A DNA stretch of 20,000 nt, taken from an uncultured virus (IMG/VR IMGVR_UViG_3300025154_000007) (Duplodnaviria; Heunggongvirae; Uroviricota; Caudoviricetes). Shown in pieces: positions 1 through 19,392 of this stretch. The DNA lies in IMG/VR virus record IMGVR_UViG_3300025154_000007; one strand, written 5' to 3'. The position numbers and the translations under genes were made by a program. Each line of letters opens with the position of its first letter. Position 1 is the first letter of the stretch. The notes under the pieces were generated by a model. It had not been told where the DNA came from and searched no databases. It saw only the letters and a list, made by a program, of their open reading frames with translations.

Positions 1-177
1 ATGCAAAACCACATAATAATTATCCAATGTAGCGTCAAGCGGAAAAAGATTCGGCGGCATGATTATAAATTTCGTATTCTGGTACAAACTGCCGATGAAT
101 AAAAAATACATAGGGAATAAAACTATAGCCGCCAAAATGATTATAAGTATCTTACTGAATATAACACGTTGCTTCAT
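1..177 (-). CDS. Carbohydrate ABC transporter permease, MalG/UgpE-type (N-terminal part; runs off the window edge)
   Basis: Manual translation MKQRVIFSKILIIILAAIVLFPMYFLFIGSLYQNTKFIIMPPNLFPLDATLDNYYVVLH shows the typical 'LFP.Y.....SL ... PP..FP...TLDNY' N-terminus. ATG overlaps the TGA of the upstream permease (ATGA, 174-177). Confidence 0.85.
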   Translation of the reverse strand, partial: MKQRVIFSKILIIILAAIVLFPMYFLFIGSLYQNTKFIIMPPNLFPLDATLDNYYVVLH

Positions 178-1028
178 TTATTTATTCCAATTTCTATTTT
201 ATTTTTTAATAAAGTCATTCCTATGGTAATGAATAATAAAATGATCGCCCCCGCACTTGCCATCCCGTGTTTTGACAAAGTAAACGCCATATCATATATA
301 TTATATACAATCGTGGCAGTATATTCGTAAGGAGCCAAAAACTGTATTGTTTCAAAAATAGCCATTGCGTTTATCGCGGACATGAATCCGAGCATCATCA
401 ATATGGGGAATATCTGCGGAAGTATTATTTTTATTTTTATCTGGAACCATGAAGCTCCGTCAATTTGCGCTTGATCAAACATTGACGTTTCAATTGACAG
501 AATGGAAGCCAGAATCATTATCGCATTTGTTCCTAGGGATGCCATTATGACCACAAAAGAAATAGCCGGTATCCCGGTAATACCTTGTGCAAACCAGACA
601 ATTGATTTTATGCCACAAATATTCAGCAACCAATTCAACGGCCCATTCAAATGAAAAATCCATTTCCACATTGAAGCTATAAATACACCAGCCGAAATTA
701 TCGGAATATAAAAAGCGAACCGAACGAAATCATGCCATTTTTTTGAAAGATTGCAACTGAGCAATGCGAGAAAACCAGCCCCGCCAATCTGCCCGATGAC
801 CAATAAAATAATATAAAAAAGACTATTGAATATTGATTGAATAAATGCCTTATTTGAAAACAAGTTTATGTAGTTTTTCACCCCTACAAACTTGGAAGTT
901 ATAAAATTGGTTTTTTGCATGGATAAAATAAACAATTCATACAAAGGCCAAAATATAAATAATCCCGCCAACAATACGGCAGGAAGCAAAAAGATATATT
1001 TTATTTTATCTCCGGCATGTTTTATCAA
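174..1028 (-). CDS. Carbohydrate ABC transporter permease, MalF/UgpA-type
   Basis: 'FLLPAVLL...FIFWP', 'FVGVKNY..LF', 'FYIP.IS', 'W.WIF...GPLN' and an EAA-loop variant 'SMFDQAQIDGASWFQ...IILP'. About 6 hydrophobic segments. TTG start with GGAG RBS. Confidence 0.92.
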   Translation of the reverse strand: MIKHAGDKIKYIFLLPAVLLAGLFIFWPLYELFILSMQKTNFITSKFVGVKNYINLFSNKAFIQSIFNSLFYIILLVIGQIGGAGFLALLSCNLSKKWHDFVRFAFYIPIISAGVFIASMWKWIFHLNGPLNWLLNICGIKSIVWFAQGITGIPAISFVVIMASLGTNAIMILASILSIETSMFDQAQIDGASWFQIKIKIILPQIFPILMMLGFMSAINAMAIFETIQFLAPYEYTATIVYNIYDMAFTLSKHGMASAGAIILLFITIGMTLLKNKIEIGINK

Positions 1029-1289
1029 CTATTTTCTCCAATAGTGCATTATTTCATTTAAGGTCATTTTATCTTTTGAATAATGATATACCGGGATTCC
1101 GTCTTTTTTATCCAACTTATACAAATTGGATTTATAGTCGAATATATCCCATGATTCAAATAATTTTCTATAATTATTTCCATTGGCAATATAATTAAAT
1201 TTCCTTACTTTTTTATTCGCTAAATGTTTTCCATATTTGCCATAACCGCCGCTTTTAATTATCGGAACTTTTTTCATGCTTCTGCTCAT
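1029..1289 (-). CDS. Small basic phage-type hypothetical protein (86 aa, MSRSMKKVPII...)
   Basis: GGAGG RBS precedes ATG at 1289. The pattern 'MSRS.KK.PI...ANKKVR...YRKLFESWDIFDY' resembles a recurrent phage hypothetical family (from memory, not searched). Confidence 0.7.
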   Translation of the reverse strand: MSRSMKKVPIIKSGGYGKYGKHLANKKVRKFNYIANGNNYRKLFESWDIFDYKSNLYKLDKKDGIPVYHYSKDKMTLNEIMHYWRK

Positions 1290-1311
1290 AAGTTCCTCCA
1301 TTATAAAATAT

Positions 1312-1338
1312 GCCGGTTTAAGGTTCACCGGCAACCTT
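1312..1338 (-). other. Compact two-stem (H-type pseudoknot or alternative hairpin) element between the solute-binding gene and the next gene
   Basis: Minus strand reads AAGGTT-GCCGGT-G-AACCTT-AA-ACCGGC: two interleaved perfect 6-bp stems, followed by ATATTTT. Confidence 0.5.
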
Positions 1339-1345
1339 ATTCTAT

Positions 1346-2620
1346 TTACTCTTCCAGGGCTTCGTTCAGCGCCTTTTCATATTCAGCAATCGCGGCTTCC
1401 GGCGCAATAGCCAAATTCAAAACCTTTTGGAGGATCGGGAAATGAACCGGCCTTGTCGCGGAAAACTTCGCATTCGTCAAACCGACATCGAACAAGCCAT
1501 TATTTTTCATGATGCCCATGATTGCGTTCAGATTCTTGTCATCCATAAGCATCTTGACATCGGATCGATTCGGAATGACCGAAGCCAATGACATTTGACT
1601 TTGGATATAACCATCATTCATATATTCCACCAATCGGGCGGCGACTTTATCTTTCGCGGTTCCCGTCTTGTGAATTACAAACGCGGCATTCATCATATAT
1701 GTAGGCACATTCTTAACGGAAAAATCACGCGGGAACGGAACATACTTTACTTCAAACGGCTTCGCAATAAACTTTTGCTGAATGGCCGTATCCCAATATG
1801 GGCCCATCCATGCCGCGAAAAACGCTGTAGCCGCATAATTGCCCTTCGCCCATTCCGCCGCGTAATCATCGTCATTCAGCATCGCCGCGCCATCGGGAAT
1901 ATATTTATTTTTAGCAAGCGCCTGAAAAAATTCATACGCTTTGGCACCTCCGGTTTCCCTTATCGTAGTACGGGAATAATCGCCCGGCTTATAAAACTTT
2001 GCTCCGAATGAAGCAAACCAATTATTGATCAAATAATCACCAGACGTATTGGCGGCGAACATTCCAGTAGCAAACTTCTTTCCGCCATAATAATCCTTCA
2101 CTTTTTCAGCCATGACAATGAAATCGAAAATAGTCCAATTATCAGGAACGACATATCCGATTTCCTTCATCATATCCATATTGATACACATACCTTGCGG
2201 AGCGCCGGGAACAGGAAGCGCAAGAACTTTACCATTCCGCTTATACGGATCGAGTACGCCAGAATTATACTTTCCCAAGTCCCGGATATAAGTATCAAGC
2301 GGCAGGGCATATTCCGGCAGGATCAATTTGGATGACCGCACCAGAGTATCGTTATAAATATTCGGGGCCTGCCCGGAAGCCAAAAGCGCATCAAGGGAAA
2401 GCGTCGCCCCAGTCTTCAAATCAACCTGAAGCAATTCCACCTTGGCATCGGGAAAATCCTTCAAAAGCTTGGGAAGTGCGTAATCATAATAAAAAGACTT
2501 TCCTTTCATTTCACCGGAAAGCAAAATCATCTTTGTATCGGTAGTCAAGAAAGTAATATTCTGCGCAAAAGAAAAAACCGAAATAAAAGCCGCCATGAAA
2601 ATAAATAGATGTTTCTTCAT
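1346..2620 (-). CDS. Extracellular/periplasmic solute-binding protein, family 1 (sugar / sugar-phosphate ABC)
   Basis: Signal peptide MKKHLFIFMAAFISVFSFA|Q, plus 'LLASGQAPNI', 'ALPLDTYI', 'NGKVLALP', 'INMDMMKEIG..VPDNWT'. 424 aa, adjacent to permeases, GGAG RBS. Confidence 0.9.
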   Translation of the reverse strand: MKKHLFIFMAAFISVFSFAQNITFLTTDTKMILLSGEMKGKSFYYDYALPKLLKDFPDAKVELLQVDLKTGATLSLDALLASGQAPNIYNDTLVRSSKLILPEYALPLDTYIRDLGKYNSGVLDPYKRNGKVLALPVPGAPQGMCINMDMMKEIGYVVPDNWTIFDFIVMAEKVKDYYGGKKFATGMFAANTSGDYLINNWFASFGAKFYKPGDYSRTTIRETGGAKAYEFFQALAKNKYIPDGAAMLNDDDYAAEWAKGNYAATAFFAAWMGPYWDTAIQQKFIAKPFEVKYVPFPRDFSVKNVPTYMMNAAFVIHKTGTAKDKVAARLVEYMNDGYIQSQMSLASVIPNRSDVKMLMDDKNLNAIMGIMKNNGLFDVGLTNAKFSATRPVHFPILQKVLNLAIAPEAAIAEYEKALNEALEE

Positions 2621-2643
2621 TCTTTTCTCCTATAGAATTTTAT

Positions 2644-3330
2644 TTAAAAAGAAACCTTGACGGAAGCGCACCACGTATCATCGAACAAAACATAATTCAT
2701 TTCAAAAACAATCCCCGCAATAACCGAAGCCTTGACTCCGAAATCGGAAGTAAAATCTTCCGTCTGAAAATTATAAGCGGTATTGTAATAGGGCTTCAAA
2801 TATTTATCACCGCCGAACTTATAATCTACGCTTCCGGCAACGTCATACGTCGGAGAATCAATAAGCTCATCGGCGGTAAATGTTCCCGAAAGTCCGACCG
2901 GTCCGAATACACTTCCCGATGCGACATCAAAAGTTCCGACAAAATCCGCCGTTCCCTTCGCCGGATCATTGACGACATCCGTATACGATACCGCCGGAGT
3001 CAAAGTAAAAATATCCGAAAGATTCAAATCATAGGCGAGCTTCCCCTTCCAGGATTCATTTAGCTTACCCGTCACCGTAAAAGAATTGACGGTGTATGAC
3101 GCAGTAAAAGTCGGCCAACCCGAAGATACCACCCCGTTATCAACCGCAATTGATTGTTCCAGCCCGATAGAAACCGGCCCCTTGACCGGCATCGCGTAAT
3201 CGAACGAAGTTGAATTGCTGTAAACACCTTCATCCGTATACGCAAACTTTGAACTGCCGGACAAACCGACTTCCGCAAAAGCAAATCCCGCAATGAGCAC
3301 CAACGCAAAAATAATAAAAATTTTCTTCAT
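2644..3330 (-). CDS. Putative outer-membrane beta-barrel / porin-like protein
   Basis: Signal peptide ending AFA|E, amphipathic beta-strand pattern rich in G/S/T/Y/F, and C-terminal 'ASVKVSF' (terminal Phe, beta-signal-like). ATGA overlap with the upstream ORF. Confidence 0.7.
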   Translation of the reverse strand: MKKIFIIFALVLIAGFAFAEVGLSGSSKFAYTDEGVYSNSTSFDYAMPVKGPVSIGLEQSIAVDNGVVSSGWPTFTASYTVNSFTVTGKLNESWKGKLAYDLNLSDIFTLTPAVSYTDVVNDPAKGTADFVGTFDVASGSVFGPVGLSGTFTADELIDSPTYDVAGSVDYKFGGDKYLKPYYNTAYNFQTEDFTSDFGVKASVIAGIVFEMNYVLFDDTWCASVKVSF

Positions 3331-3509
3331 GTTTTTTCTCCCAAAGACAAATATTCAGGTTCGACCCAAACCACGATGCCACCCGGAATAGTTGCGCACA
3401 TTGCGGTTCCCAACAATACATTGAAAATAATAAATACCAAATCTTCACCCGTCCGATTGTCAACTACCTTCGTTTCCGCCTTTACCTCCTGAATCTGTTC
3501 TGCTGTCAT
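3327..3509 (-). CDS. Hypothetical protein (60 aa, MTAEQIQEV...)
   Basis: ATGA overlaps at both ends; AGGAGG upstream of ATG 3509. Confidence 0.6.
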   Translation of the reverse strand: MTAEQIQEVKAETKVVDNRTGEDLVFIIFNVLLGTAMCATIPGGIVVWVEPEYLSLGEKT

Positions 3510-3706
3510 TTCTGATTTTCCTCCTTTTCTTCCGCCAATTCCAATTGATCGCAATTAAGCCATAATATATTTCCATTAAGGTATTTACATTTTACACCAC
3601 GATGGGAAAAATCATAGTCATATTTTATAAATATAAATATTTCACCGGTTTTAATATATCGTAATTTGGTTCCCGGTTCCATATCTTCAAACTGTTCTAC
3701 AATCAA
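3506..3706 (-). CDS. Hypothetical protein (66 aa)
   Basis: TTG start overlapping the upstream stop; AGGA RBS; part of a coupled small-ORF run. Confidence 0.6.
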   Translation of the reverse strand: MIVEQFEDMEPGTKLRYIKTGEIFIFIKYDYDFSHRGVKCKYLNGNILWLNCDQLELAEEKEENQK

Positions 3707-3972
3707 ATACTATTCCTTTTATCAAAAAATCTATTTCTTATATAATTAACGGGCCGCCAAAACACATTTCCTACAATTCTAAGCCGCAACGTAAAAAAGA
3801 AATACTTAATCGGATGCTTTTTATTTTCAAGTTGTATTGTTTTGAACCAAAGCGTATCTTCAATATTAACATATTCTTCGACCTTCTTAATTCCTTCTTT
3901 TTCACATTCTTCTAATACTCCATCTTCTTTCAAAAAATCATCAAAAGAACTGCCAATATTTTCTTTTCCCAT
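3703..3972 (-). CDS. Hypothetical protein with N-terminal 'NIGSSFDDFLKEDG' motif
   Basis: AGGAG RBS. The N-terminal motif resembles that of some small XRE/antitoxin-like proteins, but no HTH is evident. Confidence 0.65.
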   Translation of the reverse strand: MGKENIGSSFDDFLKEDGVLEECEKEGIKKVEEYVNIEDTLWFKTIQLENKKHPIKYFFFTLRLRIVGNVFWRPVNYIRNRFFDKRNSI

Positions 3973-3976
3973 TTAA

Positions 3977-4189
3977 TTACTCCTTTTTCAAATTATCTTT
4001 GTTCAAAAACAACACGGGAATATTTATCATTTTAATCATATTATCAATAACGGTTTTATCATTCGCATTTTTATATAATTCGGACATGGCATTGAACATT
4101 TCCGTAAGTTCCTTATACGGCGGATTTATAATTTCATATTTTTGATCAGGAGAAAACACCATTCCACTACCCATAATAGTTTTCTTCAT
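3977..4189 (-). CDS. Hypothetical protein (70 aa)
   Basis: ORF track; AGGAG RBS; abuts neighbours. Confidence 0.65.
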   Translation of the reverse strand: MKKTIMGSGMVFSPDQKYEIINPPYKELTEMFNAMSELYKNANDKTVIDNMIKMINIPVLFLNKDNLKKE

Positions 4190-4825
4190 CTAATTGCTCC
4201 TTTCAATGACTTTAGATACTCCGGTTTTATTGTCCTTGCTAACTTCAAATATTTTATCGGCAATATTGCAGACATCGGCACTGTAAACCGAATTACTGTT
4301 TATTATAAATTGCAAGCCTAATTCCTTTGACAACTTCCTTATTATTTCAAATCCTTTTACATTCAATTCACGCGGCTGAAGGAACTTAAATGGCTCATCC
4401 AATATAATCACATTATCGGATTTTCCCAAACTCCAAGCCGCAATCCGCAAAGCAAACGAAGTCAAATCGACCAAGCCACCGCCGCATTGATTCATGGGGT
4501 CATCCAATTCTATTCCATTCTGCCGCAATACCAATTCCGCTTCCGTCTTTCCGCGCTTTATTTCAAAGTTTACATCGAAAACATATTCATCCGGGAAACA
4601 AGTATCTAAACATAAATTAACCAAATCGGATATTTGGTATTTTATTTGCTCTTGCGTATCCTTGGCTACCTGCTGGATAAATGCCTGCGCCTTTTCCAAT
4701 ACGATAATATTATTATTCGTACTAAATAGATTATTTTCATAATCTTGTAGCTTCGATGCCAAAAGCTCTCTTTTACCTTTCATTTTATTTATCTTTTCGG
4801 AATAAATATTTGATTGGAAATTCAT
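4190..4825 (-). CDS. sbcC: SbcC/Rad50-like ATPase, C-terminal half (coiled coil, ABC signature, Walker B)
   Basis: N-terminal coiled coil, signature-like 'NQCGGG' followed by 'SFALRIA', and Walker B/D-loop 'IILDEPF'. No Walker A. Start reassigned to ATG 4825 (AAGGA RBS). Confidence 0.85.
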   Translation of the reverse strand: MNFQSNIYSEKINKMKGKRELLASKLQDYENNLFSTNNNIIVLEKAQAFIQQVAKDTQEQIKYQISDLVNLCLDTCFPDEYVFDVNFEIKRGKTEAELVLRQNGIELDDPMNQCGGGLVDLTSFALRIAAWSLGKSDNVIILDEPFKFLQPRELNVKGFEIIRKLSKELGLQFIINSNSVYSADVCNIADKIFEVSKDNKTGVSKVIERSN

Positions 4826-4992
4826 TATATGTCCTTTATAGCGTCTAAAACACAATCAATCTGTAAAAAACTATCAAGCACAGATTTTATATAATTTTCA
4901 TCTTGAAAACTATTATAAATAGTCATTAAAGCATTGCCATACCATTTAACGCCCTTAATATAATAAGAAAAAGCTACACTAATTCTTTTCAT
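4825..4992 (-). CDS. Hypothetical protein (55 aa, MKRISVAFSYY...)
   Basis: Manual translation; fills the gap exactly, with a TAATG overlap to the downstream gene. Confidence 0.55.
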   Translation of the reverse strand: MKRISVAFSYYIKGVKWYGNALMTIYNSFQDENYIKSVLDSFLQIDCVLDAIKDI

Positions 4993-5205
4993 TTATTCAT
5001 CTTCTACATAAATATAATAATAAAGACCAGTACTAGAAATATTTTTAGCATTTGGAAATTGTTTCTTTATTCCTTCCAAGCCTATACCAGCTTTAACAAT
5101 ATAAATTTTCCCTGCACCCTCATCGGAATAAAGTCTACGCATACCGACAATCTGACAACTAGAAAATAACATAGCCACTAAAACAATAAAAATAAACCCT
5201 TTCAT
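4993..5205 (-). CDS. Putative small lipoprotein
   Basis: MKGFIFIVLVAMLFSS-C: hydrophobic signal with lipobox Cys; GGAGG RBS; ATGA overlap. Confidence 0.65.
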   Translation of the reverse strand: MKGFIFIVLVAMLFSSCQIVGMRRLYSDEGAGKIYIVKAGIGLEGIKKQFPNAKNISSTGLYYYIYVEDE

Positions 5206-5441
5206 ATTTCCTCCCAATCGCATAGAGCTTGTAATTTAGAAACTAGCTTTTCTTTTTTCTGGTTACATTTTTGCAAACTATCCCTATATTCTTTCATCTT
5301 TTCATCTATCCCATCTATATCTATTTCATAATCTTTTTTTACTTGTTCTTCAATTTTAGCCTTGGCGCCTTCCGCCCTGGCCTTATTTGTTTTAGCAGCT
5401 TCGATCTTTTCGCGTAATGCGGTAAATTCTTTAACTGTCAT
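5202..5441 (-). CDS. Small coiled-coil protein (79 aa)
   Basis: Heptad-rich K/E/A sequence; ATGA overlaps; lies within the SbcCD cluster. Confidence 0.7.
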   Translation of the reverse strand: MTVKEFTALREKIEAAKTNKARAEGAKAKIEEQVKKDYEIDIDGIDEKMKEYRDSLQKCNQKKEKLVSKLQALCDWEEI

Positions 5442-5839
5442 TTGTTTTCCGCCAAATACGACTCAACTTCCGGCATATATTGTTCCCAATCTTCTTTTTC
5501 AATTCTCCCGTTAATACCATCATACGTAATCACTTTATCTCGAATATTAGCTTTATTTATAGTTTTTTTATCCGTGTACTCGTCATTTAAATGACTAAAA
5601 TCAAAAATGTAATCGCCGATACTGTAACAACCAAATAAAACTAAACCTAATATTCCGTATAAAAAAGGAAGTATTAATATAAAATTGAATATATATCTAC
5701 CAACTAATGGAAGATCGCTGCATAAAAAAGGCGTGTTTATTGTAAATAAATGAGTAATAATAAAGTGCAAACTTATACCCGTTAATACTAATAATACATT
5801 ACCCATACGCAATAATATACCTTTAATACGCAACCGCAT
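5438..5839 (-). CDS. Hypothetical membrane protein (2 predicted TM segments)
   Basis: Two hydrophobic stretches; AGGAG RBS. Confidence 0.65.
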   Translation of the reverse strand: MRLRIKGILLRMGNVLLVLTGISLHFIITHLFTINTPFLCSDLPLVGRYIFNFILILPFLYGILGLVLFGCYSIGDYIFDFSHLNDEYTDKKTINKANIRDKVITYDGINGRIEKEDWEQYMPEVESYLAENK

Positions 5840-5841
5840 AA

Positions 5842-6726
5842 TTATTCTCCTTCTACCAAAGATCGAATCATTTTGATAGTATCTTCATCCAAGGTTTTCT
5901 TGTTTTTCTTTATCGCACGTTCAATGTTATCAATAATGGATAAGCTAATATTTGTACTTTTCTTGATTCCTTCCACAAATGCAGTTATTCTATTATCCCT
6001 TTCCTCTTCTTTTTTTAAATATGCGTCATCAATCATTTCTATATTATCATCCAAATATATTCTTTCTACTATTTCTTTTTCGGTATCGACATAAAAAACA
6101 GAAGGCTTATATTCTTTTTCATCGGAACTTTGGCGAATAGTACATCCACCATTAATTACATGACGGCCGTCTTTTTCGTAATGGAAGCACTTGTGATTAT
6201 CACCTGTAAAAATGTATTTATAATCAGGGTACTTTTCTAATAATTGACTAGCCGTTATTCCGTCGCAATTAGGCGGAATACCTTTCAAGGCCTTAAACAC
6301 TAATTGATGAATAAATAAAACGTCATCTAATGGCCCGCTTACTTCGGTATTAAAATCTACCCATGCGCCAAATTCAGACATCCCATGAACTATTTTATTA
6401 TGCTTTTTCGATAAACTAAAAAATACTCCGATAGAACTATTATTTACATTTTCCATAGAATGGAATTGCAAATCGTGGTTACCGGCTAAAATATGAACCT
6501 TCTTATTTATATTTGAAAATTCCTCTATCAGCATTATCATCAAATATTCCGGTACGGTTCCTTTATTGAATAAATCACCAACTATACATAAAGGAACATT
6601 ATATTTATTGGCGATGGAAACTATATTCCTGATCATCAATCTTTGCGTTTCATCCCAATCATTATCCGTTCGACAGCGAGGCAAATCGGGCCGGATATGC
6701 AGATCGGAGCAGCTAATTATTTTCAA
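5842..6726 (-). CDS. sbcD: SbcD/Mre11-like metallophosphoesterase nuclease
   Basis: All five calcineurin-like motifs: SDLH, GDLF, GNHD, FIHQ, GDNH. Flanked by the SbcC halves. Confidence 0.9.
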   Translation of the reverse strand: MKIISCSDLHIRPDLPRCRTDNDWDETQRLMIRNIVSIANKYNVPLCIVGDLFNKGTVPEYLMIMLIEEFSNINKKVHILAGNHDLQFHSMENVNNSSIGVFFSLSKKHNKIVHGMSEFGAWVDFNTEVSGPLDDVLFIHQLVFKALKGIPPNCDGITASQLLEKYPDYKYIFTGDNHKCFHYEKDGRHVINGGCTIRQSSDEKEYKPSVFYVDTEKEIVERIYLDDNIEMIDDAYLKKEEERDNRITAFVEGIKKSTNISLSIIDNIERAIKKNKKTLDEDTIKMIRSLVEGE

Positions 6727-7232
6727 TTATGTATCCTTATTCCCATTTCGTGCCTAGATTCAAAAATATCGGCTATTTTTTCTGTTTCCATCAACATTTC
6801 AGCAGTAATACTTTCGACAATGTTATTTAAATTACTATAAAAAAAATTTAGATACACCTCATTACCAATCGAATAATATTTTTGATTCCTACTTGAAAAT
6901 ATACTATCATCATGTCTTAATTCAGCAATATATTTTTTATTTTTATTATAAATATATTTTTTAATGCCATGTAAATATTGCGGATAATTATATAATTTTA
7001 TATCCAACTTTTCAGTGTAATATATATTATTGTACGTTACTAACAACATATATTTATTATTTTTAAATGATTTTTCCTCAACTGACCACCCAAATTTGTA
7101 CCATAAATCATGAAACAATATAAATACATTTTTTATCTTATCCTCTTCTTCTTTTTCAGATAAAGAAATTCGTTTTAATGCTATATCAATACTATTTAAC
7201 ATTATAGCCGTATCACCATTATTTGTAATCAT
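6723..7232 (-). CDS. Hypothetical protein (169 aa, AT-rich)
   Basis: ORF with overlapping start/stop at both ends. Confidence 0.65.
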   Translation of the reverse strand: MITNNGDTAIMLNSIDIALKRISLSEKEEEDKIKNVFILFHDLWYKFGWSVEEKSFKNNKYMLLVTYNNIYYTEKLDIKLYNYPQYLHGIKKYIYNKNKKYIAELRHDDSIFSSRNQKYYSIGNEVYLNFFYSNLNNIVESITAEMLMETEKIADIFESRHEMGIRIHN

Positions 7233-8149
7233 AGTTTACCACCACAAATTGGACAAGTATCTGGCATTTGTTTTTCCAGCTTTTCTATCAATGCGCTATT
7301 CTCTTTTATCTTTTGTACCTCGGCATTATAATTTTCCAGGCAATCATTCAAGTTTTCTATATTATCCAATAATTCTTTTTCTTCTTTTTTTATTTCATCC
7401 AATTGTTCTATTGTTTCTTCAATATTTTTAAATGGTATTTTTAAATGATTTTGTATTATTTTTACATATTTTTTATAATCGACATTCAATGTTTCCAGCC
7501 CGTCAATTTTATCTTCGATGGATTCCGCCAATATTTCAACTTCATTTAATTGATTGTTCAGCCTTTCAGCTTCATCCAGAATAACAAATGTTTCCAGTTC
7601 CTTTTCTATGGAAATTATTTCGGCCTCATATTGTTTTATGTCCTGATTATATTTTCTTCTTTTGCTTTCGGCGTTGTTTAATATTTTGTCGATAAGATCC
7701 AGGCGGATTTCTTTGTTCAGGAATCTGGCAACCTCGGAAGCCGATTCAGATAAAAGAAAAGGCGCATCCATTTGACGCTGGATATTCACTTCGCCGATAT
7801 TCAATATTTTTTCTACTTGTTCGGGAACATCCATCCCGATAGCTTCCAAAGTAATATCGTCATTTATTTTATAGCCGTTAAGATCAGGATTGCGTATTCT
7901 TTTAATCGAATTATTTTCGTTGGTAATTTGTGCGGAAGTGGATTTAAGCGGATTACCTTTCTTGTCCCGATTCCAGTAAGAAATAAATGACAGGCCGGAA
8001 GGACGGTTATAAATAGCCCAGAACAATCCACGAAGGATCGCCGTCTTGCCGGAATTGGAATGGCCGATTATTGCATTGACGTTGGGAGAAAAGTTCAGGG
8101 TACTTTTTTTATGGCTTTGGAAATTACGAAGAATTAGACTTGAAATCAT
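7229..8149 (-). CDS. sbcC: SbcC/Rad50-like ATPase, N-terminal half (Walker A, coiled coil, zinc hook)
   Basis: 'MISSLILRNFQSH', Walker A 'GHSNSGKT', Q-loop 'NIQRQ', long coiled coil, ending 'CPICGGKL*'. Confidence 0.9.
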   Translation of the reverse strand: MISSLILRNFQSHKKSTLNFSPNVNAIIGHSNSGKTAILRGLFWAIYNRPSGLSFISYWNRDKKGNPLKSTSAQITNENNSIKRIRNPDLNGYKINDDITLEAIGMDVPEQVEKILNIGEVNIQRQMDAPFLLSESASEVARFLNKEIRLDLIDKILNNAESKRRKYNQDIKQYEAEIISIEKELETFVILDEAERLNNQLNEVEILAESIEDKIDGLETLNVDYKKYVKIIQNHLKIPFKNIEETIEQLDEIKKEEKELLDNIENLNDCLENYNAEVQKIKENSALIEKLEKQMPDTCPICGGKL

Positions 8150-8376
8150 TTAATATCCTCTAATTCTATATCTTTAGAGGTTACTATTTCAAATTCAAAA
8201 ATACGTCGGACAATTTGGTCTATAGTAACTTTTTTTTGTCTTATCTCGCCGGTTTCCTGATTTACTAAATTAATAGTCACAGTATCCATGCCATGAATAG
8301 TTATAATACAATTACCATAAGCTATTTCTAATATAGATATCCAAGGTTTCGCAATTCGTTTCTTTTGTTTCGCCAT
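8146..8376 (-). CDS. Hypothetical protein (76 aa)
   Basis: AAGGAG RBS; ATGA overlap with sbcC-N. Confidence 0.7.
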   Translation of the reverse strand: MAKQKKRIAKPWISILEIAYGNCIITIHGMDTVTINLVNQETGEIRQKKVTIDQIVRRIFEFEIVTSKDIELEDIK

Positions 8377-8416
8377 CTTTTATTCTCCTTCGGTTTACCG
8401 ATCGGACGTCATCTAT

Positions 8417-8425
8417 ATTATAGCA
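8417..8425 (-). promoter_or_regulatory. Extended -10 promoter (TGcTATAAT) for the SbcCD/ABC transcription unit
   Basis: Minus strand TGCTATAATATAG lies about 40 nt upstream of ATG 8376. Confidence 0.55.
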
Positions 8426-8445
8426 TATCGACGAAGAAAATAAAA

Positions 8446-8542
8446 GCGGGCCGAAAAGGCAGGTACGGTATCCAGTCGGCAATCGAGCAATTACCGGCTT
8501 TCCCATGTTCCTTTTGCTTTCCTTACCTTTTCTCCAGTCCGC
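8446..8542 (-). ncRNA. Candidate structured small RNA (about 97 nt)
   Basis: 5' GCGGACUG..GAAAAGGUA pairs with 3' UGCCUUUUC-GGCCCGC; internal hairpin CGGUAAU/AUUGCCG. Starts 6-7 nt after a TATAAT box and ends at UUUUAUUUU. Confidence 0.55.
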
Positions 8543-8548
8543 AATAAT

Positions 8549-8574
8549 ATTATAGATTCAGATCCCACAATTTA
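8549..8574 (-). promoter_or_regulatory. Promoter, TAAA-N16-TATAATA motif
   Basis: TAAA (8574-8571), 16 nt, TATAAT (8554-8549) in the context ATCTATAATATT; directly upstream of the candidate sRNA. Confidence 0.6.
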
Positions 8575-8951
8575 TCCAGCATAATATCCGATAATGCCGC
8601 TAAATGAACCGCCGCGAATTCCTCATGCTCGAACATATCCCGGATTTTCAAAGATTTACACAAGGTAAAAATAACATGATTGCATTCATGCATTATTATA
8701 TATCGGTTAAGTTTATCTTTTGAAAATCGCAATGTTCCGTATATACTCCTTCTATTGGTATGATTATATTTCCGGTTAGGCGAAAACATTGCCCGGCTTG
8801 CAGTATAAATAGGATCATTGCTGAATGACTTTACTATGCAATCTTCGTGGTATTCTTTTGCGGTATCGTAAATATCGATTTCCAGCCTGATTATATGATC
8901 CCTTTGCTTATACTGGGCCGAATAATTCAGGAAACGGATTTCTTTGGACAA
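8550..8951 (-). CDS. HExxH-containing (zincin-like) hypothetical protein
   Basis: 'IIMHECNHV' followed by 'EEFAA'; TTG start with a G-rich RBS. Confidence 0.65.
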   Translation of the reverse strand: MSKEIRFLNYSAQYKQRDHIIRLEIDIYDTAKEYHEDCIVKSFSNDPIYTASRAMFSPNRKYNHTNRRSIYGTLRFSKDKLNRYIIMHECNHVIFTLCKSLKIRDMFEHEEFAAVHLAALSDIMLDKLWDLNL

Positions 8952-8978
8952 TTATGAATCCCCCCTTTTGTTAAAAAT

Positions 8979-9006
8979 ATTATAGATTCAAACTATCAAT
9001 GTTTTA
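8979..9006 (-). promoter_or_regulatory. Promoter, TCTATAATA motif
   Basis: TGAATCTATAATATT, identical over 15 nt to the copy at 8546-8560; upstream TAAAA. Confidence 0.55.
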
Positions 9007-9289
9007 TTGTTTCGCAATATTCGCAGATATTATATTTCTTTTCACTCATTTTATGACAATGCGGGCATTCCTCTTCTTTTTCCGTAATTCTCAATTCAGT
9101 TGACGAAACAGGTTTATTTGGTTCAACGGGTATTTTCTTCTTTTTCTTTATTGCGCCGTATATTGTTATACCCAGAAATGCCGCAAAGAAAATAGGCGCA
9201 GGAATTGTTCCGTAAGAACAGATTGAAAGTATCAGCGCAATACCGTACAAAAGAATCAGAATAATCGGAAGGAAGAAAACATATACCAT
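8996..9289 (-). CDS. Membrane protein with C-terminal zinc ribbon
   Basis: Two hydrophobic helices, then CPHC-x9-CEYC; AAGGAG RBS. Confidence 0.7.
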   Translation of the reverse strand: MVYVFFLPIILILLYGIALILSICSYGTIPAPIFFAAFLGITIYGAIKKKKKIPVEPNKPVSSTELRITEKEEECPHCHKMSEKKYNICEYCETIKH

Positions 9290-9301
9290 GATAATTCTCC
9301 T

Positions 9302-10207
9302 TTAAATATTAGCTTTCAATATAGCGCTAATTGATCTTGCATCCTTTTCCCCTTTCGATAAAGATAACAATTCTTTATAGATAGCTTTCAAATTATCTAA
9401 GGCGATAGTATCCTGCTTTAATTGTTCTTCACGAAGATCAATCATATGCTTTAATTGAATTAAACTTGCCCTTTCAAACGGAATACGCAAATATTCAGTA
9501 TTACCGTTATATTCATCTTGATAAGTTACAAATCTAGGTGCTTGCCTTTCTCCTATCGTATCTATTTTACACTTTAATATCGCAGTCCTACATATTTCAT
9601 TTACTCCGTTTTTATACTCACTAATAACATTTTTATAATCTTTATTTCCACCACTAACAATATCAATTAGTTCATCCCCAACTTTATCAATAGTAAAAGG
9701 CTTATTACGTGTAGATAAATCATCAATTATAACTTTCATCGCCTCTTGAACTGAATAATAATGGCCTTTAGAATCCACTGATCGCGCCACGTAATCTTGG
9801 GCACCCATACCCGTATTAATACCTAATTGTTTTGCTTGTTTCAACGCCAAATCAGTTATATGTTTATTATATATTTGTTTAGCGGTTATGCAGTCAGGAT
9901 ATTTATTAAGGTACAACAAAACATCTTCACCATTTTCAATAAAGAAATTACCCATTCCTTTTTGAAAACCTTTAGTTTCTTTATCTATTTCAAATAAACG
10001 AATAATACACGTTATTTCCAATTGTAATAACTCTATTCTCATTTTATAAATGTATCCCATAGTCTTCCAATATTGGCGCATTGCTTTTATTTTAGTTAAA
10101 AATACTTTAAGCGCCTCAGTACTGGAAATGGCCTTTATTTCTTTTGTCATTTCTCCCAATTGAGAATAAATATCTGATATGCCCGATAGAACCAATTCAT
10201 TAGTCAT
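9302..10207 (-). CDS. Hypothetical protein (301 aa, helical)
   Basis: Long ORF; AGGGGG RBS; no recognisable motif. Confidence 0.7.
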   Translation of the reverse strand: MTNELVLSGISDIYSQLGEMTKEIKAISSTEALKVFLTKIKAMRQYWKTMGYIYKMRIELLQLEITCIIRLFEIDKETKGFQKGMGNFFIENGEDVLLYLNKYPDCITAKQIYNKHITDLALKQAKQLGINTGMGAQDYVARSVDSKGHYYSVQEAMKVIIDDLSTRNKPFTIDKVGDELIDIVSGGNKDYKNVISEYKNGVNEICRTAILKCKIDTIGERQAPRFVTYQDEYNGNTEYLRIPFERASLIQLKHMIDLREEQLKQDTIALDNLKAIYKELLSLSKGEKDARSISAILKANI

Positions 10208-10226
10208 AAATCCCCCTATACAGAAA

Positions 10227-11189
10227 TTAAAATCCCCACTCTTTCTTGATGACGCCTAATTTATTTTTTTTATCTTCTATCCTCTGTAATTTATTTTTTT
10301 CTTTTTCACTGGCCTTATAATTCAAAATTATAGATTTAGAACTATCACAAGTATGTTTTTTGTTTAATTTCTGTAAACTACCACATTCAAAGCACCAATA
10401 ATAGCCAGATTTAAACAGCGCCGAACTAAAAAGATCATCGCAATAACCGCAAATATTTATTTTTGTGTCTTTAAAAAAAGGAACAGTGTCGTAATCTGTC
10501 ACTTCAATTTGCGATTGACGATGAAAACGGCCTGATCCTTCATAATATCTTCCGCAAATTAAGCAATAATCATTACGTTGATAGTCATTCCTCATATAAG
10601 GCATTTTACGGCCTTTGTCATACATATAACGAAATTGAATTAATTTACTTATCTTGTGTCGTATTCTAGGCACAAAATAATGTTTTCCGTCTAACATTTC
10701 TAACATAATACGATTATCATCGTAAAAACTTCTTTTAATATTAAAGGCATTATTTATATGGAATTCATTAGCATGATCATTGTAATTATGATCATCGTTT
10801 ATTAAATAATGATTCGACTTTTTAGCTAATAAATCCCCATAAAATTCATATGATAAATGTTCTAATTTTTCTTTAATAGTACCATTTTTATATTTATTAT
10901 AAGTATCAGTAGTGACTCTTCTATTTATTTCCTTTTCTTCATATCCACGCCGTAAACTTCTTTTTATATGATTAGAATAATAGTACATTAATTTATTAAT
11001 ATTATATATTGAGTGAATACCCCGTATTTTATCATACACACTTTCAATAAATTCATTTTCTTTATTTTCTTTTTCCTCTGGAGAACGGGTCGAACCCAAT
11101 CCCCAATGCATTATCGCTTTTCGCATTTCAATATGATCTAAATATGTAAGAACATCTCCAAGTTTAGCGAACAATTTTTCAGCTTTCAC
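10227..11189 (-). CDS. Hypothetical protein (320 aa) with several CxxC pairs
   Basis: CLIC, CGYC and CFEC..H.C motifs suggest zinc binding; GTG start, GGTGG RBS. Confidence 0.7.
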   Translation of the reverse strand: MKAEKLFAKLGDVLTYLDHIEMRKAIMHWGLGSTRSPEEKENKENEFIESVYDKIRGIHSIYNINKLMYYYSNHIKRSLRRGYEEKEINRRVTTDTYNKYKNGTIKEKLEHLSYEFYGDLLAKKSNHYLINDDHNYNDHANEFHINNAFNIKRSFYDDNRIMLEMLDGKHYFVPRIRHKISKLIQFRYMYDKGRKMPYMRNDYQRNDYCLICGRYYEGSGRFHRQSQIEVTDYDTVPFFKDTKINICGYCDDLFSSALFKSGYYWCFECGSLQKLNKKHTCDSSKSIILNYKASEKEKNKLQRIEDKKNKLGVIKKEWGF

Positions 11190-11233
11190 TATAAACCACC
11201 CTTAAAATATGTAAGTTAACTACTTACAGTTGT

Positions 11234-11259
11234 ATTATAGACGAAAAACATTCTTTTTA
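11234..11259 (-). promoter_or_regulatory. Leftward promoter, TAAA-N16-TATAATA motif
   Basis: TAAA (11259-11256), 16 nt, TATAAT (11239-11234) in CGTCTATAATAC. Confidence 0.6.
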
Positions 11260-11547
11260 TCATTTCAAAACAATTATTCCGCATAAAGTCCAAAAGTTTT
11301 TGAACGTGTTTCTATATATTTATTTTAATATATTGGAAGCGGTTTTATTGTTTTGGGTGACGTATATAGAAGAAAACATTGATTTTGAAAAAAGGAGCGT
11401 ATACTATAGTATATGGTACCAGCGTATACAGGAGTATATGCTTATATATAAGAAATAGACTAATCTCAAGAAATAAGTTATCTCTAAAGAGATAATAAGA
11501 ACCTTGCGGTTCATCAATCCCTTTTAAAAACCTTTTATAGCCTATAG

Positions 11548-11574
11548 CAAAAAACCAGAACATCGTCTATAATA
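11548..11574 (+). promoter_or_regulatory. Rightward promoter, (C)AAA-N16-TATAATA motif
   Basis: CAAA (11548-11551), 16 nt, TATAAT (11568-11573) in CGTCTATAATAT. Confidence 0.55.
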
Positions 11575-11647
11575 TGAAGTATAGGAAAGCAAGCGACCTT
11601 TGGCCGGGTTTCTTGCACGATCTTTTCTAAACGGGTCCAGATTCGAC

Positions 11648-11728
11648 AAGCCCCTTTGGGCGGCTCGCTGATTCTGGTATTGAGGACCAAATACTGGAAG
11701 AGGGGCCACGAGCCACCCAAAGGGGTTT
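11648..11728 (+). promoter_or_regulatory. Long leader hairpin sequestering the RBS of the 437-aa gene
   Basis: AAGCCCCTTTGGGcGGCTCG pairs with CGAGCCaCCCAAAGGGGTTT; inner stem TTCTGGTATT/AATACTGGAA. Ends 3 nt before TTG 11732. Confidence 0.65.
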
Positions 11729-11731
11729 TAT

Positions 11732-13045
11732 TTGAATGATTTAATATCTATTAAAAAACAAATACTATTAAATACGTATAGAAAAGAAATATGGGATTTT
11801 TATAATTTTTCTATAATAGAATTATTTATATTTGACCGCTTTTTCAATTGGGCTTCTACGGGGCAAATGATTTTTATTATGCACGATGGCAAGAAATTCT
11901 TTTTGATTGATTATTTTTATATTGCCCCTTCTTGGGGAATGTCGGAGATTTATTTGAAAAAGATAATGCTGGGATTATCCGGCTCAATGCCCAAAAACGT
12001 TTCTACTAATCTTAAATATCCGTTGATAAGACTTACCCAAAAAGATGAATATAAAAAATGGAAGTCTTATTATGGGTTTGAAATCGGCACAATGAACACT
12101 TTGATTTCTTGGGATAGTCTAAGTCTGAAAAGAAAAGCATTCCTAGAGGAGTTTATAAATATGGACGGCCTGTTTACCGAATTGCCCATCCAGCCGAAAC
12201 AAATAATAAAAGACAAGGATTTCCATAAAGTCCCCGCCCATTCAGTTTGCCTTGATCTTTACAAATCACTTTTACAAATAAATACAAATAACGGAAAGCG
12301 TTTATTTGTAAACCATATCATACCCGCCGATGCCCATCATTACAACGCCACCTATGCGCATTTCCAGGACGCAATCTTTTGTCTTTATGAAGGTAAATTC
12401 CTTACTACCTACAATTCCGATAAAATGGTCGAATGGTTCCGAATCAAATATAAATATTATTTAAATAATGAATCTATAAAAGAAAAAATACGATCCTGTA
12501 AACATGACTGGAATAAAATAAAAGAAATAGTATTGGAAGCCGGGAACAATTACGCTTTATGGTTTGATGTCAATTCCGAACAATATGATAAAGATGCATT
12601 ACCTAGATCCATCGTAGATTGGATATATTCCGCTCATACGGAGACTTCAATGTTCTATGTTTCATTATTGCAACCGCCGACATCCGCACGGGAAGCCGAG
12701 GCGGAAAGATTGTTCAACAGGATCAACCCGAAATACCGGAAAATATTCTATTCATTGAAACAGGAAAGTTTCGACGGCTACACATTCTGGAATAAAATAA
12801 ATGACCTGATAAAATGGTATGATAAATATTGGGGAAGATTGACCAGACAGGATATTAATTGTGCTTATTGGCTGGATGGAATAACGGCTAATTTCCTGAA
12901 TAACTATAAAGAATGGCTTATGGCTTTCACCGATGAAAAACCCTTCCTTAAAAATATCGGAATAAATAATAATACCTTCGATTTATATATCAAACAGAAA
13001 ATAAAAGATCACGGTATCGAAATCGAAATCCCAAGGAGTTTGTAA
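11732..13045 (+). CDS. Hypothetical protein (437 aa); possible replication/origin-associated protein
   Basis: Long ORF with TTG start. The functional guess rests only on its position next to the palindrome-rich divergence region. Confidence 0.7.
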   Translation: MNDLISIKKQILLNTYRKEIWDFYNFSIIELFIFDRFFNWASTGQMIFIMHDGKKFFLIDYFYIAPSWGMSEIYLKKIMLGLSGSMPKNVSTNLKYPLIRLTQKDEYKKWKSYYGFEIGTMNTLISWDSLSLKRKAFLEEFINMDGLFTELPIQPKQIIKDKDFHKVPAHSVCLDLYKSLLQINTNNGKRLFVNHIIPADAHHYNATYAHFQDAIFCLYEGKFLTTYNSDKMVEWFRIKYKYYLNNESIKEKIRSCKHDWNKIKEIVLEAGNNYALWFDVNSEQYDKDALPRSIVDWIYSAHTETSMFYVSLLQPPTSAREAEAERLFNRINPKYRKIFYSLKQESFDGYTFWNKINDLIKWYDKYWGRLTRQDINCAYWLDGITANFLNNYKEWLMAFTDEKPFLKNIGINNNTFDLYIKQKIKDHGIEIEIPRSL

Positions 13046-14578: not shown

Positions 14579-14631
14579 TCGTAGATAGCCGCCTACGGGC
14601 GGTAATGCGGCGAGCCGGTCCAAAGCCCGGC
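14579..14631 (+). ncRNA. Twister-like self-cleaving ribozyme, circularly permuted (P1 closed by a hairpin)
   Basis: UCGUA-GAUAG-[CCGCC UACG GGCGG]-UAA-UGCGGC-GA-[GCCGG UCCAAAGC CCGGC]. Shows the twister UAA cleavage motif, P2 UGCGG/UCGUA, P4 with an L4 close to GGUNNCAAGCCC, and GC/GC T2. The T1 pairing is imperfect. Confidence 0.65.
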
Positions 14632-19316: not shown

Positions 19317-19343
19317 TAAATAAGTGATCCATTGTCTATAATA
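19317..19343 (+). promoter_or_regulatory. Promoter, TAAA-N16-TATAATA motif
   Basis: TAAA (19317-19320), 16 nt, TATAAT (19337-19342) in GTCTATAATATT. Confidence 0.6.
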
Positions 19344-19392
19344 TTATAAAGCGCTTAGGACGCTTTTAAGTTCTTGTTCGGAGGGTAAAATC

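Follow-up and report, generated by a model that had tools for sequence, protein, structure and literature searches.

Does a short gap between two phage genes hold an RNA of its own and, if so, of what kind? The question arises at 8437-8574 of the window, by which we mean the whole stretch of 20,000 nucleotides (nt) analysed here from an uncultured Caudoviricetes virus (IMG/VR record IMGVR_UViG_3300025154_000007), where an earlier reading, below called the original prediction, had placed a stand-alone small RNA with six GGA motifs. We conclude that a structured RNA some 100 nt long is very probably encoded on the minus strand from 8542 to about 8440, and that it belongs to a conserved family carried by phages and unmatched in Rfam 15. 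The window copy is one of at least 50 distinct homologues, to which a truncated copy (L123) is to be added. That the feature is more than chance follows from these homologues and from the covariation among them, not from thermodynamics.

Among relatives of the SbcC-N protein encoded downstream (15 viral and 27 metagenome loci), the element is present in L018 alone, where the SbcC protein is 78% identical. In L018, GAATCTATAATATTATTG and the -10 box are identical to the window although the upstream gene is unrelated, which bears out the prediction of a discrete structured RNA with its own promoter, beyond a leader or terminator. The outer stem has been rebuilt there by compensatory change, with GUAGGUUG pairing with UAACCUAC in place of GCGGACUG and CGGCCCGC, and the variable hairpin, P2, is a different and longer one. 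L018 retains both single-stranded blocks, a U-tract in the corresponding position (UUUUAUUUAUUUU), and the promoter and leader downstream. The closing stem and U-tract of the window copy are present as first described. The original prediction had proposed collecting homologues upstream of sbcC-N genes; L018 and L065 (record G006) are such cases. In 40 other sbcC-related loci, a covariance model of the family, R1, detected none (best E 0.74 and 4.7).

Scans of viral contigs with patterns of the conserved blocks recovered the same core in unrelated contigs, and a looser pattern filtered with R1 yielded at least 40 more members (at least 36 distinct), bringing the total from these scans to at least 47 distinct members. 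With variant members as queries, BLAST located the RNA in three cultured phages, Cobetia phage Carin-5, Ralstonia phage RSP15 (Ackermannviridae) and Vibrio phage 1.121.O._10N.286.46.C4, and R1 confirmed each. Their named hosts are Cobetia for Carin-5 and Enterovibrio norvegicus for Vibrio phage 1.121.O; the RSP15 record names none. A scan restricted to the 3' block returned 43 loci, comprising seven known members, the truncated L123 and a chance remainder. Each of nine viral records searched carried one significant copy (E <1e-4), and one of them gave a second, chance-level match at E 0.87. The record G001 is the same phage as the window, at 100% identity. Blastn of 7000-10300 and of the element itself had no match among INPHARED phages, an exact 27-mer occurred 0 times in viral contigs, and blastn of the spacer against 15 sbcC-related loci gave short chance matches only. 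In prokaryote genome contigs, a gapped pattern specific to type I gave one chance coding match; the AGA/UCA and AGC/GCA variants, which are commoner, would escape such a pattern, so the null result is no proof of absence.

We assembled 49 sequences into an alignment (A3), whose near-invariant core reads GGUAAGGAAAG-N-AAA(A/C)GGARNAUGGG...GAUACC-NYACC(U/G)GCC. From the outside in, the fold consists of a stem P1 (6-7 base pairs or longer, sequence free), an invariant U.G pair, a one-sided purine-rich junction of 12-13 nt (AAGGAAAG-N-AAA) that tolerates an inserted hairpin, and an inner helix P1a in which (A/C)GG-A-RN meets NY-A-CC(U/G) around a conserved A.A mismatch. Innermost, an invariant AUGGG lies opposite GAUACC, followed by P2 as a free hairpin. 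In A3, 95.6% of the cells pair, compared with 75.1% in shuffles, and the covariation score is 0.486 against 0.133 in shuffles, a value that 0 of 500 shuffles reach; with the partners slid by 1-3 columns as a control, 36-52% were paired. Nine pairs change on both sides, and in P1 six of eight do so. Within P1a, pair 36-114 is AU in 38 and CG in 11, pairs 37-113 and 38-112 are always GC, pair 40-110 is GC in 38 and AU in 11, and pair 41-109 is AU in 21, CG in 19, GC in 3, UG in 3, GU in 1 and other in 2. The covariation supports P1 and P1a, in a register unlike that of the single-sequence fold. The G.U pairs, including the invariant U.G, fit the minus strand only, and AUGGG is unchanged in 49 of 49 sequences. 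The structure, which the original prediction had allowed might turn out unconserved, is therefore conserved. The same holds in reverse for the 64-codon open reading frame (ORF) at 8312-8506, suggested as the feature that might really be conserved: the ORF from the conserved AUG, 64 codons long in the window, spans just 4-22 codons in 10 other members, and the element is non-coding.

These data also settle parts of the interior. The purine-rich stretch and the hairpin that had been proposed are present, but the UA/UG pairing proposed after AAAAGG is not a conserved register. A hairpin closes near both ends of P2 in 43 of the 49 members by minimum free energy (MFE), with unrelated sequences of 14-55 nt. 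Two members, L138 and L141, carry an extra hairpin (~32 nt and ~110 nt, respectively) inside the purine-rich junction, which is therefore a reduced three-way junction. Two other registers were rejected: one from RNAalifold on nine sequences (AUGG with CCGU) leaves 38 of 49 and 26 of 49 cells unpaired, and another pairing UAAGG with CCUG breaks in L141. As separate observations on P2, four members (L225, L241, L204 and L298) share CGAAA...GAGUAG, a module that we take to resemble a loop-E or S-turn, and another subset shares GUGACAC...GAAACG.

The covariation bears directly on the simplest account of the locus, an ordinary intergenic terminator hairpin with chance motifs and no dedicated RNA. 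Such a terminator would suit the unexceptional fold energy (z -0.27) and the stem and U-tract that follow an ORF, but it explains neither 50 homologues in unrelated contexts nor a covariation score that no shuffle matches. The ~40 nt core is kept in members without a U-tract and a terminator scan is empty here, so that we give this account next to no credence.

By inspection, the window copy carries every family feature, namely P1, the U.G pair, the AAGGAAAG-N-AAA junction, P1a with its A.A mismatch, AUGGG, P2 and GAUACC; its score against R1 (88.8 bits, E 3.7e-20) is a match by construction, the copy being a training sequence. On the minus strand, the order is TATAAT, seven bases, GCGGACUG-GAG-AAAAGG, UAAGGAAAGCAAAAGGAACAUGGGAA, the hairpin at 8499-8474, GGAUACCGUACCUG, CCUUUU-CGGCCCGC, UUUUAUUUU, TGCTATAAT and a Shine-Dalgarno leader. 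The features are as follows:

8547-8555, minus strand: promoter -10 element CTATAATAT, whose TATAAT (8554-8549) shares bases with the TAA stop (8552-8550) that ends the upstream ORF 8550-8951 of 133 amino acids (aa)
8542-8535, minus strand: 5' strand of the outer stem, GCGGACUG, pairing with CGGCCCGC at 8453-8446 with one A.C mismatch and one U.G
8531-8526, minus strand: 5' strand of P1, AAAAGG, after a GAG bulge, pairing with CCUUUU at 8459-8454
U8525 with G8460, minus strand: the invariant U.G pair, directly after the 5' strand of P1
8513-8524, minus strand: purine-rich junction or bulge AAGGAAAGCAAA, near-invariant and kept in all members
8507-8512, minus strand: 5' strand of P1a, AGGAAC, with the conserved A8509.A8464 mismatch
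8502-8506, minus strand: invariant AUGGG, in which AU is a bulge, GG is possibly paired with CC at 8467-8468, and G8502 follows
8474-8499, minus strand: P2 hairpin, whose sequence and length differ among members
8461-8472, minus strand: 3' block GAUACC-GUA-CCU, made up of a GAUA loop, CC and the 3' strand of P1a
8446-8460, minus strand: G8460, the 3' strand of P1 (CCUUUU, 8454-8459) and the 3' strand of the outer stem (CGGCCCGC, 8446-8453)
8436-8445, minus strand: U-tract UUUUAUUUUC (UUUUAUUUU at 8445-8437), directly after the closing stem, the putative termination site
8377-8425, minus strand (context, outside the RNA): downstream promoter and leader, with an extended -10 TGCTATAAT at 8415-8425 and a conserved 5' untranslated region CCGAUCGGUAAACCGAAGGAGA, ahead of an operon of a 76-aa ORF, sbcC-N and sbcD
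8415-8423, 8547-8555 and 8977-8985, minus strand, and 11567-11575 and 19336-19344, plus strand: copies of CTATAATAT

We then considered how such an RNA would be made. The predicted promoter is present, and by its spacing to the -10 box transcription probably starts at about 8542 (G8542, the first base of GCGGACUG), ~7 nt past TATAAT, as had been proposed. CTATAATAT occurs five times in the window against 0.63 expected, every copy on the local gene strand, and looks like the -10 consensus of this phage with no clear -35; the entry for this promoter in a consensus scan is TGGATA-N18-TATAAT (10/12). GAATCTATAATAT lies upstream of both the RNA and the gene preceding it. The next gene has its own promoter, as predicted, in the extended -10 at 8415-8425. 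In the window phage, initiation near 8542 at the CTATAATAT promoter would thus be followed by termination at the closing stem and U-tract.

Other phages present the same core in two kinds of setting, both in keeping with the idea of a stand-alone RNA: after phage-consensus promoters, and as a slot the size of a transfer RNA (tRNA) in tRNA arrays. The copy in L065 (record G006) is preceded by TTGAAA-N18-TATAAT (TTGAAAGAT..TGTATAATA), the own consensus of that phage with four further copies, and a small ORF and an sbcC-like gene lie downstream of it. In L188, L191 and Carin-5, TATAAT stands 5-8 nt before P1. The tRNA settings were counted on the same strand over 45 distinct cores, with duplicates merged and with L045 (missed by the regular expression) and the three cultured phages excluded. 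A tRNA ends no more than 20 nt before UAAGG in 20 of the 45, at a distance of 6-16 nt and mostly 9-11 nt, which equals P1 plus 2-4 nt; one starts within 60 nt after the core in 17, mostly at 15 nt, and 30 have a tRNA within 450 nt. In three members (L212, L197 and L185), the element exactly fills a gap of ~90 nt between two tRNAs, and in G004 it sits between tRNA-Asp and tRNA-Met in a set of 26 tRNAs (18 before, 8 after). The identities of the adjoining tRNAs vary among members. ARAGORN and the Rfam tRNA model called no cloverleaf over the element in the window or in members, and called the flanking tRNAs normally. The two complete carrier genomes (G002 and G005) have zero tRNAs, so the link to tRNAs is frequent and not obligatory. 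The 5' end is placed at P1 either by the promoter or by the upstream tRNA. From these contexts, we consider it likely that the RNA is made as a separate stable RNA, which in many other phages would be co-transcribed with tRNAs and released by tRNA-processing nucleases.

Two features were noted beside these settings. Tracts resembling tRNA 3' halves, ending in CCA and uncalled by ARAGORN, lie upstream of some members (L082 at ~1090-1165; L189 upstream of 370-475; the flanks of L216, L220 and L234), and three members share a hairpin, GGUCAGRGGGUUGAUCRCCYCUG, just 5' of P1.

A place directly beside tRNAs is also what a ribozyme might occupy. If the family were a new class of ribozyme, self-cleaving or RNA-processing, its cuts would fall inside the element or next to it and might, for instance, free the 3' end of the upstream tRNA or segment the transcripts of tRNA arrays. 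Near-invariant junction and loop nucleotides, free helices, an optional inserted stem and a patchy spread among phages are the typical anatomy of a small ribozyme, 20 of 45 cores begin 6-16 nt (mostly 9-11) past a tRNA 3' end, and the window also has a Twister-P5 match at 14580-14630. According to one preprint (10.1101/2023.06.13.544163), HDV-like theta ribozymes adjoin viral tRNAs, and in this they resemble the present family, a small conserved RNA directly beside viral tRNA genes; the family differs in having no HDV-like match and in folding as a bulged rod, not as a nested double pseudoknot. We searched the twister, hammerhead, hatchet, pistol, twister-sister, HDV-like and hairpin models in the window region (E up to 10) and in eight other members (E up to 1), and no Rfam ribozyme matched the element. 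None was present in the other carrier contigs scanned (~257 kb), and the family therefore does not co-occur with twister. In several members, moreover, a promoter directly precedes the RNA, which would leave cleavage at the 5' end without a purpose. On balance, a ribozyme is an unlikely explanation.

Every member shares its strand with the genes or tRNAs that come after it, which raises the alternative of an element acting in cis on transcription or processing, such as a terminator or insulator between operons, a polymerase modifier like put, or an element for the processing or stability of tRNA or mRNA. The put RNA of phage HK022 is the comparison for a cis RNA that modifies polymerase. The sequence of closing stem, U-tract and new promoter in the window and L018, and the place directly after promoters in several phages, would suit such a role, and the conservation of RNA polymerase and of the enzymes that process tRNAs is sufficient to account for a core that does not vary. 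A plain terminator, however, needs no invariant core of ~40 nt, and many members have no U-tract. An antiterminator would be expected at the start of an operon, not in mid-array as in G004, and the terminator-like U-tract right after the window RNA would be odd for one. We regard a cis-acting element as rather unlikely.

The same pattern of invariant junction and loop nucleotides with varying helices would be expected of an aptamer for a small molecule or ion, either as a riboswitch on the downstream gene or as an unattached RNA that sequesters a signalling nucleotide. Two members could be read this way: in L044 a Shine-Dalgarno and ATG come 25 nt past P1, and in L045 a terminator-like hairpin precedes a Shine-Dalgarno and ATG. 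Across the family, however, the downstream neighbours are heterogeneous, the next feature is a tRNA (within 60 nt) in at least 17 of 45, and there is no consistent expression platform. The next gene in the window has its own promoter, and no Rfam riboswitch matched in the window region or in the eight other members. An aptamer role is thus decidedly improbable.

The motif count behind the original prediction was correct (six GGA in 8445-8542 against a mean of 2.6 in mononucleotide shuffles, P ~0.012; seven in 8437-8574), and it had suggested a sponge titrating CsrA/RsmA in the way of CsrB or RsmZ. Proteobacteria commonly have CsrA, and the known hosts are Proteobacteria. The window RNA is indeed like CsrB, RsmY and RsmZ in being a small RNA with GGA motifs, two of which are invariant A(N)GGA motifs (UAAGGAA and A(A/C)GGAR). 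The other four of the six lie at freely varying positions, and the second invariant GGA is paired in P1a, leaving a single conserved accessible site, in contrast to the many of known sponges. Strict conservation over ~40 nt is also far more than CsrA binding needs, and no CsrB, RsmY or RsmZ model matched at the gathering score or at E up to 10, so this proposal did not hold up and is very improbable.

Nor did the other proposal made with it, a miniature 6S-like decoy of the RNA polymerase holoenzyme. The 5' and 3' ends of the window RNA pair in a long closing stem around an unpaired centre, as in 6S RNA, and RNA polymerase would be a conserved target. The bulge supported by covariation is one-sided, however, with no two-sided bubble resembling an open promoter; the RNA of ~100 nt is about half the length of 6S RNA (roughly 180 nt), and the 6S model (RF00013) gave no match. 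We find a 6S-like decoy barely credible. The third proposal, an anti-defence RNA, is conceivable.

What remains, and what we tentatively favour, is an RNA acting in trans by binding a component conserved across very different hosts, most plausibly of the translation machinery or of the machinery that processes or targets tRNAs. We reason so from helices that vary freely around a near-fixed junction and loops, from hosts that differ widely and from the want of a common phage protein; the tRNA and translation machinery is suggested by where the RNA is kept. The flanking genes differ among members, the G+C content of carrier contigs ranges from 29% to 54%, and no protein family occurs in more than 3 of 11 RNA-bearing contigs. 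The helices would serve as a scaffold and the invariant junction and internal loops as the predicted binding surface, and an RNA of tRNA size would act as a decoy or modulator during infection. Carrier genomes contain only modestly more 8-mers complementary to the junction than their composition predicts, in counts that include the gene's own complementary strand, and these point to no clear antisense target. A bolder and more doubtful possibility is a new phage-specific class of functional RNA in tRNA slots, either a decoy of a conserved host enzyme acting on tRNA or a new small ribozyme that matures tRNA-array transcripts. Under the decoy option, one set of targets would be a tRNA-targeting defence nuclease, or else a tRNA-processing or translation factor. 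Either option would mean that a near-invariant core of 40 nt has persisted in phages whose hosts span 29% to 54% GC.

Several points weigh against a conserved trans-acting RNA or narrow it. The single-sequence MFE of the window copy (-30.8 kcal/mol, z -0.27) is no stabler than that of shuffles, a simple terminator scan called no terminator at the element, and some promoter-driven members have no U-tract after P1. The GG/CC pairing (44-45/107-108) never varies and is unproven because covariation cannot probe invariant positions. Since the scans fixed TAAGGAAAG.AAA and GATACC, the invariance is partly ascertainment. Fixed positions can vary, as in UAAGAAAAG of Carin-5 and AAAGG and UAUACC of the Vibrio phage, both found by BLAST, and columns that the scans did not fix are still invariant (the GG before UAAGG, GG-A in P1a, AUGGG, A-CC and G-C). 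The comparison for shared proteins was by blastp at 1e-5 on contigs that are mostly fragments. The start, end and stability of the RNA are all read from sequence context, and the argument for a conserved host factor consists of two points, that the core is invariant and that the phages share no protein.

We compared the family with known RNAs. In Rfam 15, nothing was found at the element in the whole window at the gathering score, and 8250-8750 at E up to 10 gave SCARNA7 noise alone; carrier contigs and the eight other members had nothing at the element, and the tmRNA, Y RNA and pRNA models matched neither the window region nor those members. The tRNA cluster of phage T4 encodes stable non-tRNA small RNAs, species 1 and 2. 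These are like the present family as small stable RNAs among phage tRNAs, presumably co-processed with them; the present family is also promoter-driven in tRNA-free phages (the complete genomes G002 and G005). Candidate structured RNAs have been catalogued from IMG/VR (PMC10690425), and these motifs resemble the present family in having been found by conservation and covariation in viral contigs, some of them near tRNAs. The core strings are absent from the six supplementary files of that catalogue that were searched, and the family may be an unnamed entry in it. Among the papers searched in full text none contains the core strings, keyword searches found no description, and passages of a further report (10.64898/2026.09.22.753630) contain no description of the motif.

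We rate the family as a candidate new RNA class with strong comparative evidence. An RNA of ~80-100 nt with a near-invariant core of 40 nt, in phages with no common protein, probably either acts on a basic part of host-cell biology or is active in its own right. Phage biology would gain a new class of RNA with it, and the family bears on what phage tRNA clusters encode besides tRNAs. Its presence in three cultured phages makes expression, partners, possible catalysis and effect on infection directly testable.

In the surroundings of the window RNA, the genes from ~1 to 11563 are all on the minus strand, and the element lies in a 173-nt spacer between ORF 8550-8951 and ORF 8146-8376. The upstream 133-aa protein has weak PHROG matches to families of unknown function only, and no relatives among the viral contigs searched. 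The 76-aa product of ORF 8146-8376 has no family match. Downstream of the spacer lie an sbcC-N-like gene (7229-8149) and an sbcD-like gene (5842-6726), with PHROG matches for sbcC and sbcD. The 76-aa ORF is missing from L018, where sbcC comes directly after the leader, and L065 has an 82-aa ORF at the same place. The leader CCGAUCGGUAAACCGAAGGAGA (window 8380-8405, minus strand; L018 706-730) is common to both phages, with a small hairpin just 5' of the Shine-Dalgarno.

Finally, three observations concern other sites. The 10-mer AGGAAAGCAA recurs at 11583-11592 on the plus strand, as first noted (two matches where 0.07 are expected, a count that none of 200 shuffles attains). It starts a leader of ~155 nt that follows a CTATAATAT promoter and precedes a 437-aa gene at 11732 (11567-11731, plus strand); this leader has an MFE of -64 kcal/mol (z -4.78, 0 of 200 shuffles as stable) and no Rfam match at the gathering score. 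A link between the site at 11583 and the element is unsupported: the related phage G006 has a homologue of the 437-aa gene, but this leader is missing upstream of it. G004, the carrier phage with 26 tRNAs, encodes at 14725-15097 of L172 a permuted tmRNA of betaproteobacterial type (116.6 and 128.9 bits), which hints at the host. The twister match in the window is on the plus strand and of type P5, covering the full length of the model and scoring 48.4 bits (E 1.7e-07), above the gathering score of 37.6.

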